In this document: one piece after another, positions 34,241-47,959 of the stretch
How the letters are laid out: each line of letters begins with the position of its first letter
How positions within the stretch are numbered: the stretch's first letter is position 1
Origin: a virus
IMG/VR virus record: IMGVR_UViG_3300032307_000731
Coordinates: 1 to 64,000 of that record
Strand: one strand, 5' to 3'
Length of the DNA: 64,000 bases
Program-made: the position numbers and the translations under genes
The notes under the pieces: generated by a model
The model's database searches: none
Told to the model about the DNA's origin: nothing
Seen by the model: only the letters and a program-made list of their open reading frames with translations

Positions 34241-36340
34241 ATGGCATATCAAAACATTAATCAGTATAATTTTAGACGATGGGGTCTAAAACCGGCGAAT
34301 GAAATCACGGACATTTGTCTTGCTTCAGACGAAAAAGACTACGACCAAGAGGTTGTATTTTCACCTTTACTAATTGGGGAATTGGATGGTAATAGAATGC
34401 CATTTAAATTTGATTTTAATAGTAGTGGCACCACATTATGCCCAACAAGTGCTTGTACTTTTGATTATGACACTATCGTATCTGAAAATTATTGGAACCC
34501 TGATGATATTGACCCAAACTTTTGTCCAATCATAACTGATTTATGTGATGTTGGATTAACAGGGATTGATAATGGACTTGTTAAAAAAATGTCCGGAGAA
34601 ACAATTCAAATTAATACAGGTTTATATCTTACCCAATCCGATAAATTTAGTAGATACAAATATGATAGAAGGATGAAGATGCACCCAATTACCGGGTTCA
34701 CCACATCTGAAAATAGATTATGGGATGATAATTCATATAACTACGATTTAAATTATGTAAATGCCGGTGGTGACATTGGTTATGTTGCAAGATTAGACGG
34801 AGGATTCTTCCAAGGATTTTATAAAATACCGGGTTATGATTATCAAGTATTTCCACAAAGACCTAATTTAGGGTGGACTGCTGAATTTATGTTAAAATAT
34901 CGATGGACCGGTGATACTTCAGTTGGTCTTAATGTTCGATATCCTGAAAATAAAGGAACATTCTTTTATATGGGTGCCAGAGCGGAAAACAAATTTTATC
35001 ATTACGCTGACGGTTCTCCAAAACAAGATACAGGATATACCCGAGTAACATCAGGTTTAACTTGTATGAACACTTGTGCTTGTAATCTATTAGGTAGTAA
35101 CTCTAACGATTGTCTACCGGTTTATCAACCATCAGGTGGTACATCATACAATTGTAGTTGTGGGTGCCCTTGTAATTGTGATGTTACAGTACAATATCCG
35201 GAAACTGACCCATTATATGATGGGGTTTCAAATGCATTATCATTGAGATTAAGTGGTGACACCGGAAGTCCAAGATTATGTGTAAAAACATATAGAATCA
35301 CCGGAGGATGTGAAACAACAGGAACTTGTTTAACTGGAGTGACTTATACAACAGGAACATCCGTAACAGAATGGTGTTCAACAAGAGGAATTTTTGATGA
35401 TTGTAGTGGTACCACTTATACTAATGTTGAACATTGGGTTCAAATAGATGCCGTATTTCAACGAAATGAATGGTTTGATGCTTGTGATTTAAGTTTAAAA
35501 GGTGGGTTAGGTTTAATCACCAAAGAGGTGTATACTGCAACTACCGCAAATAATAGTATTAGTTTAATTGAACCACCTCTTACTCATGAACCGGATTATG
35601 ACCCGGCAACTACTGAAGTGGTAACATTTAATGACGCTTGGACTGCTGAAGAAAAATATCGTTTAGGTACTTTAAAATTCTATGTTAATGGTAAATTGTT
35701 TTTAGTTGCCGAGGATTTTGAAGAAATTATACCAAGATTACTTAATACCCCAAAAGAAAAACAAATTGGGGTTGGGTATAATATTTCATTAGGTGGTGGG
35801 ACACAAGGACTTCATGATAACTTAACATTTTCGGGAGGTTGTCCTGAAACAATAGATGACATTGTTTATCAACAAGACCCTGAGTGTTTAACAACTCACG
35901 ATTTAGACAATACAATTTATTCAGGTCTAACGACTCATATTAAATTGGAAGAATATTTTGGGGGTAGTTTGATTGGTGATATTAGTACATTTAGAATGTA
36001 CACTGAACCATTAAATGCATCTCAAATAAAACATAATTTTAATTTATTAAAATTTAAGTATGATTTATTAAATCCGGATTGTAAGGATTGTAGAATTGTA
36101 ATTCCAAGTAATGACCTAACTTACATTTTTATTCCGGATAATGATTTGTATTACATTTCTATACCAAGTAATGATTTATCTTATATTAATATACCTAACA
36201 ATAATTTATATTATGAATTAATTGAACCAACTCCAACACCTACCCCAACACCTACTCAAGTACCTTTAATTAACCCAATATTAATTAGTTCTAACATATA
36301 TCTTAAGGTTAGAATCGATGAATACTTACAATATAATTGA
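34241..36340 (+). CDS. Cys-rich virion protein with LamG/concanavalin-like C-terminal region
   Basis: LKFYVNGKL...GDISTFRMYTEPLNASQIKHNF; 11 [ST]GxT motifs; PT tail; start moved to MAYQN after TATTTAT at 34225-34231. Confidence 0.65.
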   Translation: MAYQNINQYNFRRWGLKPANEITDICLASDEKDYDQEVVFSPLLIGELDGNRMPFKFDFNSSGTTLCPTSACTFDYDTIVSENYWNPDDIDPNFCPIITDLCDVGLTGIDNGLVKKMSGETIQINTGLYLTQSDKFSRYKYDRRMKMHPITGFTTSENRLWDDNSYNYDLNYVNAGGDIGYVARLDGGFFQGFYKIPGYDYQVFPQRPNLGWTAEFMLKYRWTGDTSVGLNVRYPENKGTFFYMGARAENKFYHYADGSPKQDTGYTRVTSGLTCMNTCACNLLGSNSNDCLPVYQPSGGTSYNCSCGCPCNCDVTVQYPETDPLYDGVSNALSLRLSGDTGSPRLCVKTYRITGGCETTGTCLTGVTYTTGTSVTEWCSTRGIFDDCSGTTYTNVEHWVQIDAVFQRNEWFDACDLSLKGGLGLITKEVYTATTANNSISLIEPPLTHEPDYDPATTEVVTFNDAWTAEEKYRLGTLKFYVNGKLFLVAEDFEEIIPRLLNTPKEKQIGVGYNISLGGGTQGLHDNLTFSGGCPETIDDIVYQQDPECLTTHDLDNTIYSGLTTHIKLEEYFGGSLIGDISTFRMYTEPLNASQIKHNFNLLKFKYDLLNPDCKDCRIVIPSNDLTYIFIPDNDLYYISIPSNDLSYINIPNNNLYYELIEPTPTPTPTPTQVPLINPILISSNIYLKVRIDEYLQYN
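36101..36220 (+). repeat. Four degenerate 10-aa repeats IPxN(D/N)LxY
   Basis: IPSNDLTYIF IPDNDLYYIS IPSNDLSYIN IPNNNLYYEL. Confidence 0.8.
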
Positions 36341-36373
36341 AAATTATTTTCAAAATAAAAAAAATAAAATATT

Positions 36374-45429: not shown

Positions 45430-46293
45430 ATGGAAAACAAAACATTATTTATAACTTGTTTTTATAACGGGTTAGATAATACGATTTTAGGAGGTCGTGT
45501 TGGTAGAATACATCATTACATAAATTCACTAAAAACTTTACTTAATTTAGAATCTGATTTTGTAATTTATACCTCAGAAGAGGATAAGAACGAACTTGAA
45601 AAACATATTGATTTTACTAAGTATAAATCAAATGTTAGGTTAATTGTTTATGATTTATTTTCACATCCAAACCATGAATATTTTCAAAAAATGTTGAATG
45701 GAAATAAAAACGATAGATGTCATGAAATAATGCATAATAAGACTTCATGGATTAAAAATCATATGTCTGAAGATTATGATTTTTATTATTGGATTGATTG
45801 TGGATTATCTCATGGTGGGTTATTTCCAAGAAGATATAGAAGTGGTGATTCTTTCTACGATTTCTTTTCATGTACTTTATTTAACCCAACAATGGTTGAA
45901 AACTTGAATAAGGTTGAAGATAAAGTTACAATATTATATGGAGACCAATCAAAACACTTATTAGAAAGAAGAGCAAATGAAAAATTTTATCATAACATAG
46001 ATGTTGTTGAAAATTGTCATATTGTCGGAGGTATGTTTGGTGGTAAAAAAGAACTTGTTAATGATTTTTGTTTAATGTATGATGATGTTTTAAAAGAAAT
46101 GATTGAATATAATGCTTTAGATATGGAAGAGGCTTTATATACAATAATATATCAAAGAAATAAAAATAACTTTAATAAATTAATATTCACTACGTGGCAC
46201 CATGAGGATAGTGATATGGCAAAATATAACTTTGATAATGAGATATATTTTTATAAAATTTTTGAAAAATTAAATAACATAATTGATGAATAA
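45430..46293 (+). CDS. HtrL/YibB-like protein
   Basis: WIDCG, VGGMFGG and EE motifs shared with the next gene. Confidence 0.65.
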   Translation: MENKTLFITCFYNGLDNTILGGRVGRIHHYINSLKTLLNLESDFVIYTSEEDKNELEKHIDFTKYKSNVRLIVYDLFSHPNHEYFQKMLNGNKNDRCHEIMHNKTSWIKNHMSEDYDFYYWIDCGLSHGGLFPRRYRSGDSFYDFFSCTLFNPTMVENLNKVEDKVTILYGDQSKHLLERRANEKFYHNIDVVENCHIVGGMFGGKKELVNDFCLMYDDVLKEMIEYNALDMEEALYTIIYQRNKNNFNKLIFTTWHHEDSDMAKYNFDNEIYFYKIFEKLNNIIDE

Positions 46294-47959
46294 TATAACG
46301 TTAGTAACAGGAATATGGGATATTGGTAGGGAAGGTTTAACCGAAGGATGGTCAAGGTCATACCAACATTATTTAGATAAATTTGAACAACTTTTAGATG
46401 TTCAAGAAAATATGATAATTTTTGGAGACGCAGAACTTAAAGATTTTGTTTTTAAAAAAAGAAATGAATCAAATACTCAATTTATTGAAAGACCTTTAAA
46501 ATGGTTTACCGATTCTGAATTTTTTCCATTAATTCAAAATATTAGAACAAACCCTGACTGGTACAATCAAGTTGGGTGGTTAAAAGATTCTACTCAGGCT
46601 AGATTAGAAAACTATAATCCATTGGTAATGTCAAAAGTTTTTCTTTTACACGACGCAAAAATATTTGATAAATTTGATTCAGAATATATGTTTTGGATTG
46701 ATGGGGGTTTAACCAACACAGTTCATCCGGGTTATTTTACTCATGATAAAGTTCTTGATAAACTTTCTAAATATATTTCAAAATTTTCATTTATAAGTTT
46801 CCCTTATGGTGCTGAAAGTGAAATACATGGTTTTGAGTATAATAAATTAAATTCATTAGCCGGAGATAAAGTTACTAAAGTTTCAAGAGGTGGGTTTTTT
46901 GGGGGTCCTAAAAACACAATAACCGATATTAATGGTGTTTATTATGGATTATTAAAATCCACATTATCGGACGGTTATATGGGAACTGAAGAATCTATCT
47001 TCAGCGTAATGGCTCACAAACACTCAGATTTGATTAATTATTTTGAAATTGATTCTAATGGGTTAGTTGGTAAGTTTTTTGAAGATTTAAAAAATGATAC
47101 CTTAGTCCCAAAGAATGAATCGAAAGTTAGTGTTGAAAATAATTTGGACATAAATAAAGTAGGTTTATATGTTTTAACTTTCAATAGTCCAAAACAATTT
47201 AAAACATTAATTGATTCAATGATGGCTTATGACCAAGATTATTTACTAAAAACTACTAAATTTTTATTAGATAATTCAACAGATGATTCAACTTATGATG
47301 AATATTCTAAATTATGTAATGAATATAATTTCACTCACATTAAAAAAGATAATTTAGGAATTTGCGGTGGAAGGCAATTTATTGCGGAACATTTTAATGA
47401 CACCGATTTAGATTATTATTTATTTTTTGAAGATGATATGTTTTTCTTCCCAAATGAAGGTATTGTGTGTCGAAATGGATTTAATCGATATGTACCAAAT
47501 TTATATTCAAAATCATTGGAGATAATTAAAACAGAAGATTTTGATTTTATCAAATTAAATTATTCTGAATTTTATGGTGATAATGGAACTCAATGGTCTT
47601 GGTATAATGTACCTCAATCGGTAAGAGAAGAATTTTGGCCTGAAAAACCAAGATTACCTGAAATGGGGTTAGACCCTAACGCACCAAAAACTGTTTACAA
47701 TAAAGTAGTATCTTATAAAGGTTTACCTTACGTTAGTGGTGAAGTTTATTATTGTAATTGGCCTCAAATTGTTAGTAGACCCGGAAATAAAAAAATGTTT
47801 TTAGATACCACATGGGCACATCCATTTGAACAAACATGGATGAGTCATATGTATCAATTAACTAAAAAAGGTGAATTGTCATCAGGATTATTACTTTTAA
47901 CACCAACCGAACACGATAGATTCGAGCATTATGATAGAGATTTGAGAAAAGAGTCATAA
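46286..47959 (+). CDS. HtrL/YibB-like domain fused to a GT2 domain
   Basis: ITLVTGIWDIGR, WIDGG, GGFFGG; then LLDNSTD, NLGICGGR, FFEDD; ATG at 46286. Confidence 0.7.
   Translation: MNNITLVTGIWDIGREGLTEGWSRSYQHYLDKFEQLLDVQENMIIFGDAELKDFVFKKRNESNTQFIERPLKWFTDSEFFPLIQNIRTNPDWYNQVGWLKDSTQARLENYNPLVMSKVFLLHDAKIFDKFDSEYMFWIDGGLTNTVHPGYFTHDKVLDKLSKYISKFSFISFPYGAESEIHGFEYNKLNSLAGDKVTKVSRGGFFGGPKNTITDINGVYYGLLKSTLSDGYMGTEESIFSVMAHKHSDLINYFEIDSNGLVGKFFEDLKNDTLVPKNESKVSVENNLDINKVGLYVLTFNSPKQFKTLIDSMMAYDQDYLLKTTKFLLDNSTDDSTYDEYSKLCNEYNFTHIKKDNLGICGGRQFIAEHFNDTDLDYYLFFEDDMFFFPNEGIVCRNGFNRYVPNLYSKSLEIIKTEDFDFIKLNYSEFYGDNGTQWSWYNVPQSVREEFWPEKPRLPEMGLDPNAPKTVYNKVVSYKGLPYVSGEVYYCNWPQIVSRPGNKKMFLDTTWAHPFEQTWMSHMYQLTKKGELSSGLLLLTPTEHDRFEHYDRDLRKES

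Follow-up and report, generated by a model that had tools for sequence, protein, structure and literature searches.

The window analysed here covers the first 64 kb (positions 1 to 64,000) of the 115,163-bp IMG/VR virus record IMGVR_UViG_3300032307_000731, which has a GC content of about 30% and a CheckV completeness of 38%. On its plus strand, a block of 12 genes at 34214-48353 brings together three genes for proteins with long threonine-rich tracts, the gene of a GT60-family glycosyltransferase (GT), three variable cassette genes and two genes for HtrL-like proteins (Table 1). The record comes from freshwater, and its source is a jumbo tailed phage, because its relatives reach 309-321 kb and one of them displays direct terminal repeats. 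A giant-virus origin was rejected, since the record is Caudoviricetes-like with relatives of this size carrying terminal repeats, and it is also countered by PHROG matches to a phage helicase and to a family B DNA polymerase (PolB).

Table 1. Coordinates of genes and sequence elements at the locus and of the GDP-fucose genes (window positions)
Positions	Strand	Feature	Remark
34214-36340	+	708-aa Cys-rich protein (24 Cys)	First gene of the plus-strand block
36374-36955	+	193-aa protein	Sub-threshold BclA_C (C1q-like) match
36958-37524	+	PT188, 188 aa	Two Cys-bearing modules with a 43-aa PT-rich linker between them
37552-37558	+	TATTTAT, late-type promoter-like motif	11 nt upstream of PT669 start
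37563-39572	+	PT669, 669 aa	Five modules; (T-x)n tracts of 58, 24, 191 and 18 aa between them
39614-39620	+	TATTTAT motif	25 nt upstream of PT634 start
39639-41543	+	PT634, 634 aa	N-terminal module, then X, Y, Y, X; tracts of 105, 57, 53 and 38 aa
41566-41591	+	Intrinsic-terminator-like hairpin	10-bp stem, 5 GC pairs, then T run; between PT634 and GT60
41619-42884	+	GT60-family (PF11397) glycosyltransferase, 421 aa	Soluble
42892-43842	+	Cassette gene, 316 aa	Homologues in distant-clade GT60 cassettes, 26-48% identity
43844-44782	+	Cassette gene, 312 aa	NodZ/O-FucT/FUT8-like by language-model neighbours only
44779-45420	+	Cassette gene, 213 aa	No Pfam match
45430-46293	+	HtrL_YibB-like protein, 287 aa	Sub-threshold; XacN1 ORF332 homologue
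46283-47959	+	Htr558, 558 aa, conserved downstream bookend	N-half HtrL_YibB, C-half GT2-like with DxD
47965-47971	+	TATTTAT motif	11 nt upstream of the 125-aa gene
47976-48353	+	s125, 125-aa Ig-like protein	Followed by PolB
19848-21723	-	GDP-mannose 4,6-dehydratase and adjoining epimerase/reductase	The latter GDP-fucose synthase-like

Threonine-tract proteins and an adjacent GT60 enzyme

The original prediction had singled out three consecutive genes whose products alternate Thr/Pro (PT) tracts with Cys modules and lack signal peptides, and this arrangement was indeed observed at 36958-41543. The tracts of PT188, PT669 and PT634 sum to 587 aa (46.5% T, 20.4% P, 9.4% Q and 9.2% N), and these three proteins thus carry the dense Pro/Thr/Ser tandem repeats by which acceptors of mucin-type systems are recognised. 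Since the tracts alternate strictly as (T-x)n, with Thr at +2 for about 92% of the Thr residues and TT being rare, "(Thr-X)n" fits them better than "Thr/Pro". Their DNA consists of degenerate tandem repeats with a unit of 12-72 nt, and PT634 contains in addition an internal duplication of a 381-nt unit (tract plus module) at 40533-41289. The modules between the tracts are 64-85 aa long with 2-6 Cys each. Module X (83 aa) is present in three copies and module Y (74 aa) in two. Both Cys residues of module X (positions 16 and 80) are invariant among 32 diverged copies, and its AlphaFold2 (AF2) model (pLDDT 90.8) had no fold match in the PDB, with no Foldseek match at E < 3 and a best VIA-align Z score of 4.2. 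PT188 matches phrog_15511, a group of unknown function, with E 3.8e-7 and is kept in 51 loci, and the length of PT669 ranges from 109 to 927 aa in close relatives. Neither signal-peptide-like nor transmembrane-like segments were detected in any of the 12 locus proteins under conditions in which the TonB-receptor-like protein of the window scored a classical signal peptide, and from their sequences all locus proteins appear to be cytoplasmic. Outside the window, a long repetitive region at 109970-115163 of the record (L200:10970-16163), whose minus strand reads (VP-x)n in an 855-aa ORF (open reading frame), is possibly another Thr-rich glycosylation substrate.

Two genes precede this trio. The 708-aa ORF starts at 34214, and the start proposed earlier, 34241, falls inside it. 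The protein has a short C-terminal TPTPTPTPT stretch and its sister-clade homologues (821-1585 aa) carry PT linkers. No Pfam, PHROG or PDB-sequence match was obtained for it, and the label "lectin-like" corresponds to a weak language-model lead to Laminin_G_3 (ConA-like). The label "C1q-like" given to the 193-aa protein likewise fell short, the BclA_C match reaching 21.2 bits for a cut-off of 38 (E 2.8e-4); this protein had no PDB sequence match and its gene slot is variable or missing among relatives. A tblastn search of isolated phages with PT634, the 708-aa protein and a 995-aa protein returned nothing useful.

Directly after the repeat genes, the predicted GT60-like enzyme was recovered with a strong match to PF11397 (220.5 bits for a cut-off of 21, E 5.8e-65, repeated on the genome) and a DxH...H signature. 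Residues D92, H94 and H229 are conserved in 100% of 65 diverse homologues and S93 in 92%, and by analogy the first three would bind the metal. The DxH motif with a downstream His is also present in the related GT27 polypeptide (pp) GalNAc transferases, from which GT60 enzymes are set apart by the lack of a C-terminal ricin-type lectin domain. PF11397 was the sole Pfam match of the 421-aa protein, such a lectin domain being absent, and a PDB sequence search gave no significant match. As judged from its sequence, the GT60 assignment is solid. The characterised members of this family are protist enzymes, polypeptide alpha-GlcNAc transferases by which mucin-type O-glycans are initiated on Thr, and their known acceptors are Thr residues within Pro-rich mucin-like repeats (PMC8724618, PMC3769586).

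We confirmed 365 IMG/VR relatives of the enzyme, the best 80 of which are 84-98% identical to it, and a large protein collection yielded more than 7,000 GT60 homologues at E < 1e-5 (4,484 clusters at 50% identity). One homologue, 74% identical (P0100), lies on a 100,588-bp contig that public databases list as 'Candidatus Elulimicrobium', a Patescibacteria metagenome-assembled genome (MAG) from the Chattahoochee lakes, which suggests that a jumbo-phage contig was binned into this MAG. Several proteins of a metagenomic protein library (P0122, P0123, P0124, P0131 and others; 1,300-2,461 aa) contain 2-4 tandem GT60 domains, and tandem or fused GT60 pairs are also found in the phage clades L160-L197 and in the phage genome G056.

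GT60 and Htr558 as bookends of a variable cassette

At least 77 related IMG/VR contigs show synteny with the locus, and 77 loci read in turn the 708-aa protein, a variable small gene, PT188, PT669, PT634, GT60, the cassette, Htr558, the 125-aa gene and PolB. PT proteins span 97-1095 aa across these loci and differ in length even where GT60 is 98% identical. Between GT60 and Htr558 we counted 38 gene clusters in 18 architectures, the commonest of which (a GT25-like gene with an HtrL-like gene) occurs in 47 loci and that of the window in 5-8. Assignable cassette members in relatives comprise GT25 enzymes, GT10 fucosyltransferases, a PLOD-type GT, GT4-like enzymes, a sugar O-methyltransferase-like protein and a DegT aminotransferase, all of them from families that build glycans. 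GT60 and Htr558 are conserved bookends round a hypervariable cassette, an arrangement that is new here, and the hypervariability suggests diversifying selection on a surface glycan. The same bookends are near-universal in two further IMG/VR clades (GT60 40-78% identical), and the isolates XacN1 and RAS14 carry GT60 (43-45% identity), an HtrL-like gene (27-28%) and Htr558 (41%) close to PolB and in unchanged order.

The three cassette genes of the window (42892-45420) had neither a Pfam match nor a significant PDB sequence match, the best of the latter being to CroV588 (E 6e-4, not significant) over 50 aa of the 213-aa protein. The GT-B and GT-A folds ascribed to the 316-aa and 213-aa products lacked Pfam or PDB-sequence support, and the fucosyltransferase likeness of the 312-aa product is suggested by its language-model neighbours. 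The N-terminal half of Htr558 matches HtrL_YibB (PF09612) with 60.1 bits for a cut-off of 24.1, its C-terminal half weakly matches phrog_842 (E 8e-5), and the whole protein is 41.5% identical to XacN1 ORF330. The 287-aa protein reaches 16 bits against PF09612, below the cut-off, and is related by BLASTP to Htr558 and to XacN1 ORF332; no other cassette member is as frequent, and it occurs in 65 of the 77 loci.

Transcription of the PT genes and of the GT operon is organised in separate units: the hairpin between PT634 and GT60 is the only strong terminator-like one in 33.3-48.6 kb, the upstream motifs differ on its two sides and the GT genes are tightly spaced, with gaps of 7, 1, -4, 9 and -11 nt from GT60 to Htr558. 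Genome-wide, 23 of 97 genes have TATTTAT in the 50 nt before their start (antisense 6, shuffled sequences 3.8 +/- 1.9), and TATTTAT(A), found 11-44 nt upstream of these genes, is a candidate late promoter that corresponds to the T4 late TATAAATA box in reverse. The original prediction of late-type motifs applies to PT669, PT634 and the 125-aa gene, and not to the genes at 34214, 36374 and 36958, all of which lack a sense TATTTAT within 50 nt. TATTTAT also precedes large genes at 65-104 kb and does not precede GT60; the PT genes therefore share the late-type motif with likely structural genes.

Further leads to a virion location of the PT proteins are weak. The 125-aa protein s125 has no Pfam match, and in other clades its domain forms the N-terminus of 324-1901-aa proteins with PT linkers. 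Its AF2 model (pLDDT 86) best matched phage baseplate N-domains, with Z scores of 8.4 for 80alpha (6v8i_BJ), 8.3 for the TP901-1 baseplate (4v96_AA) and 7.9 for the TP901-1 ORF48 N-domain (3uh8_A; rmsd 2.8 over 95 aa); matches to TP901-1, 80alpha and NF5 chains thus ranged from 7.9 to 8.4, versus 6.5-7.5 for unrelated Ig domains. The structural gene announced after the cassette was not recovered, the gene that follows the 125-aa ORF encoding PolB. Homologues of genes at 101-109 kb of the present genome (G000) precede the GT60 cassette in some clades, and one of these genes gave the one weak match, to a "tail protein", in PHROG searches of ten large proteins encoded downstream. XacN1 virions display at least two Schiff-positive glycoprotein bands, which were tentatively ascribed by the authors to ORF328 and ORF334 (PMC5852040).

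Co-occurrence of GT60 with threonine tracts, and the wider genome

The proposed linkage between GT60 and PT repeats was examined in both directions. After dereplication, the three positions upstream of GT60 (-1 to -3) are enriched in PT-tract ORFs, which are found in 28 of 64 lineages at 95% (Fisher p 1e-21), in 12 of 46 at 90% (p 8e-6) and in 7 of 31 at 80% (p 0.004), and most GT60 lineages have no adjacent PT gene. In some distant clades PT-rich ORFs lie directly upstream of GT60, one clade has them flanked by two tandem GT60 genes (L179-L182, L195), and other clades have no PT ORF within 10 kb of GT60. Most distant-clade PT proteins contain none of the modules of the window, and the feature shared across clades is the tract and not an inherited gene.

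In the reverse direction, most phage PT genes have no GT60 nearby (about 93% of the PT-tract viral loci sampled), and GT60-positive genomes carry tracts without adjacency. At the contig level, GT60 was present in 6 of 44 contigs sampled by a (TP)5 DNA pattern versus 1 of 49 sampled by a random 14-mer (p 0.05), the latter sample having been weighted on purpose towards large contigs. PT-tract ORFs of at least 20 aa were found in all five GT60-positive genomes (XacN1 15, G001 9, partial G000 3, G004 3 and G005 2) and in none of the three GT60-negative jumbo phages RaK2, RSL1 and phiKZ (p 0.018). The pattern (T-x)8 matched 186 times in G001, 150 in G002, 122 in XacN1 and 38 in G056, all GT60-positive, and 0-2 times in six other genomes, the GT60-positive G004 and G005 among them. 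G056, the single GT60-positive genome of the random sample, is a 306,759-bp IMG/VR phage carrying (TPTV)n, with (Thr-Pro-Thr-Val)n tracts at 3-208 and 306645-306754, inside the terminal repeat at both genome ends. We conclude that the linkage between GT60 and (T-x)n tracts is real but partial. As for a hydroxyproline route, genes for 2-oxoglutarate-Fe(II) oxygenases (2OG-Fe(II); PF13640, prolyl-hydroxylase-type) are present in the complete relative G001 (G001:C1) at 28772-29065, 152970-153233 and 162023-162214, and PF13640 was found neither in G002 and G000 nor at the locus; this family possibly bears on such a route, its linkage being inconsistent.

Other products encoded in the window are PolB, a helicase, a superoxide dismutase fusion, the enzymes of GDP-fucose synthesis and many GTs. 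The phage's own GDP-fucose genes, which had been predicted, were found and are possibly a sugar-nucleotide supply. They belong to a minus-strand block at 15000-31300 that forms a second, larger glycan gene set, with the dehydratase gene, the GDP-fucose-synthase-like gene and further GTs (GT2-like of 647 aa; GT4-like of 403 and 350 aa). On the plus strand, a TonB-dependent-receptor-like protein with CarboxypepD_reg and Plug domains and a classical signal peptide (5843-8545) and an OmpA-domain protein (123-1301) are outer-membrane-type genes of Bacteroidota flavour within a jumbo phage, and as far as sequence can tell the gene content points to Bacteroidota-type hosts for these phages. The minus-strand gene at 52688-54220 encodes a 510-aa protein in which a complete Fe/Mn superoxide dismutase is followed by about 280 aa without a family match. 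A megablast comparison of 20 kb of the window with isolated phages gave no match. Freshwater phages described in 2025 as "moraphages" (PMC12619734) have genomes of 200-307 kb, Flavobacteriia as predicted hosts and four core GT orthogroups whose role is unknown, and they may represent the same or a related lineage.

A candidate mucin-like glycosylation system, its rivals and its relatives

The locus may encode a phage-borne, cytoplasmic and protein-directed O-glycosylation system of mucin-like type, a reading which is better supported than the alternatives and to which we give about an even chance. In this scheme, the tightly packed operon of GT60, variable GTs and two HtrL-like proteins would make soluble enzymes, and late in infection the TATTTAT-driven genes would yield modular proteins whose (Thr-X)n tracts offer about 270 Thr acceptors. 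GT60 would put the first N-acetylhexosamine (HexNAc) on Thr, by analogy with the protist pp-alpha-GlcNAc transferases, after which the strain-variable cassette would extend the glycan, by means of GT25-, GT10-, PLOD-GT- and GT4-like enzymes, a methyltransferase and a sugar aminotransferase in relatives, and of three unassigned gene products, one of them fucosyltransferase-like, in the window, where the GDP-fucose genes may supply the sugar. The conserved HtrL/GT2 protein would carry out an invariant step, and the glycosylated proteins would probably be exposed on the virion, as fibres anchored to the baseplate or as decoration, so that every phage strain would have a glycan coat of its own. 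We infer the acceptor, the sugar, the virion location and the biological role, and the bottle-brush, bait and protease-shield roles are speculation. The cytoplasmic mucin-style reading of the original prediction is thus favoured by the GT60 family, by the enrichment of tracts and by the lack of export signals and lipid-carrier genes; the terminator that splits the PT genes from the GT operon does not favour it. More tentatively still, one may suppose that large aquatic and XacN1-like jumbo phages in general carry a serotype-like glycan locus, in which GT60 and HtrL/GT2 flank a rapidly exchanged GT cassette that builds strain-specific mucin-type O-glycans on the (Thr-X)n tracts of baseplate- or capsid-anchored proteins, forming a cytoplasm-made glycocalyx that evolves like an O-antigen locus.

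A number of observations weigh against such a system. The PT genes are parted from the GT operon by a strong terminator and by different upstream motifs. A PT-tract gene lies within three genes of GT60 in only about 23-44% of the dereplicated GT60 lineages, and a GT60 gene was found in 4 of 80 viral loci (chunks of about 10 kb) sampled by the (TP)5 pattern. The GT60-positive G004 and G005 contain short PT tracts only, and G086, a 368,683-bp IMG/VR record, has 21 (T-x)8 matches without a detected PF11397, so that it either breaks the co-occurrence or shows the limits of a search within a bounded record. Sampling at the genome level was sparse, ignored kinship and included several related GT60-positive genomes. 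Concerning the virion, the fold match of s125 is borderline, about 1 Z unit above generic Ig domains, and PHROG and tblastn searches gave no structural assignment for the locus proteins. The PT tracts could be plain flexible linkers.

If so, the GT60...HtrL cassette might glycosylate other phage proteins (capsid, tail or collagen-like fibres) with the PT tracts lying nearby by chance, a reading that we regard as unlikely. It would account for XacN1 and RAS14, which keep the GT60/HtrL trio beside baseplate-wedge and giant structural-type genes with no PT-rich ORF within 9 kb of the cluster, as well as for the missing adjacent PT gene in most GT60 lineages and for the terminator between the two blocks; other acceptors might be a collagen-like or (Gly-Thr-Ser)n candidate and the product of the BclA_C-like gene, both encoded in the genome. 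However, PT genes are enriched next to GT60, non-homologous PT proteins between tandem GT60 genes included, XacN1 has its 15 PT-tract ORFs elsewhere in the genome, and the GT60 acceptors known so far are Thr residues in Pro-rich mucin-like repeats. We also consider it improbable that the cassette remodels a glycan of the host envelope, such as the core of lipooligosaccharide (LOS) or lipopolysaccharide (LPS) or another surface glycoconjugate, for instance in order to block superinfection or to avoid re-adsorption to debris, with the PT proteins being unrelated. HtrL, GT25 and the GT9 of XacN1 are families typical of LOS/LPS core loci: HtrL_YibB is known only from such loci, a GT25-like gene belongs to the commonest cassette architecture (47 loci) and a GT9-family gene lies beside the XacN1 cassette. 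The cassette hypervariability also resembles that of bacterial outer-core and O-antigen loci, and the window encodes exported outer-membrane-type proteins. On the other hand, no lipid or LPS acceptor is known for GT60, the enzymes are all without membrane segments and the PT-tract enrichment would be left unexplained. Neither an initiating phosphoglycosyl transferase nor a flippase was found in five genomes, although core modification needs neither. In the latter search, PF02397 (Bac_transf), PF00953 (Glycos_transf_4) and PF01943 (Wzx) were absent from G000, G001, G002, G005 and XacN1, with controls positive in 9-13 of 14 genomes, and synthesis of a polysaccharide on a lipid carrier is hence unlikely.

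The weakest rival, which we hold to be very improbable, is that the cassette hypermodifies the phage DNA with sugars, as do the T-even glucosyltransferases and phage DNA-glycan systems. Phage GT clusters building diverse DNA glycans are known (bioRxiv 10.1101/2023.12.21.572611; PMC13326640), yet GT60, PF11397 and HtrL are unmentioned in these two reports. The cassette adjoins PolB here and lies near PolB and RNase H in XacN1, but sister-clade cassettes adjoin fibre-like genes and not replication genes. The C-terminal half of Htr558 weakly matches phrog_842, a beta-glucosyl-hydroxymethylcytosine (HMC) alpha-glucosyltransferase, over a stretch that spans the generic GT-A DxD region only. A DNA-glycosylation system would require an enzyme supplying hydroxymethyl- or hydroxy-pyrimidine to the GT. 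ThyA-family genes, which might encode a synthase or a hydroxymethylase, are present in G001 and G002, but the match (E 7.5e-87) looks like an ordinary thymidylate synthase, and no Tet_JBP was found in five genomes, though the positive control was also silent.

Should the mucin-like reading be true, the diversification of a surface glycan would bear on phage-host recognition, on the grazing or immune recognition of phages and on the stability of particles in freshwater, and HtrL_YibB, an uncharacterised family, would gain its first functional setting, as would bacterial or viral GT60 members. The family is very widespread, with 365 IMG/VR contigs for the clade of the window alone. XacN1 and RAS14, which are in culture and possess the same conserved GT60/HtrL trio, open the idea to direct tests.

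Virus-encoded protein glycosylation has been documented for giant viruses and a few mycobacteriophages. We found no description in the literature searched of a GT60-initiated mucin-like system in tailed phages, nor any link between GT60 or HtrL and phage PT-repeat proteins. The phage enzyme shares the Pfam/CAZy family, the DxH...H signature and the lack of a ricin-type lectin domain with the protist GT60 enzymes (Dictyostelium Gnt1 and pp-alphaGlcNAcT2, Trypanosoma cruzi pp-alpha-GlcNAcT), and like the acceptors of these enzymes, the adjacent or co-occurring phage proteins have Thr/Pro-rich repeats. Unlike them, it is soluble without a Golgi anchor, has strictly (T-x)n tracts as candidate acceptors and shares its operon with HtrL-like proteins and an exchangeable set of GTs. 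In mycobacteriophages, according to Freeman et al. 2023 (cited in PMC12619734), phage GTs are likewise proposed or shown to modify the phage's own structural proteins in the cytoplasm, the glycans being placed on the C-termini of capsid and tail-tube subunits by other GT families, whereas the candidates here are dedicated repeat proteins, a GT60 initiator and a hypervariable cassette. Giant viruses (PBCV-1 Vp54; Mimivirus fibril glycans with clade-specific clusters) also combine their own sugar-nucleotide synthesis with many soluble, lineage-variable GTs, and their glycosylation genes are thought to decorate the particle surface (PMC9614988, PMC7019647). The present case differs in that a tailed phage and not a nucleocytoplasmic large DNA virus (NCLDV) is concerned, that the candidate acceptor is a mucin-like repeat and that GT60 and HtrL act as bookends of the putative system.

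Bacterial O-antigen and LOS outer-core loci offer a similar organisation, with conserved flanks round a mosaic of fast-exchanged GT and sugar-modification genes and with HtrL and GT25 members, but the phage locus has no initiating transferase, flippase or polymerase, is phage-borne and is linked to repeat proteins. Another counterpart is the cluster ORF334-ORF330 of the Xanthomonas jumbo phage XacN1 (PMC5852040), whose homologous GT60 (45%), HtrL-like (27%) and HtrL/GT2 (41.5%) genes follow one another as in the window, close to PolB, together with the PT-tract ORFs elsewhere in its genome and the Schiff-positive bands of its virions. It differs by having no adjacent PT gene, a carbamoyltransferase in the cassette, a gammaproteobacterial host and 50% GC, and its authors merely suggested that the GTs make the glycoproteins (PMC5852040). 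What is new is the conserved pair of GT60/HtrL bookends round a hypervariable cassette and the partial, significant association with (Thr-X)n proteins.

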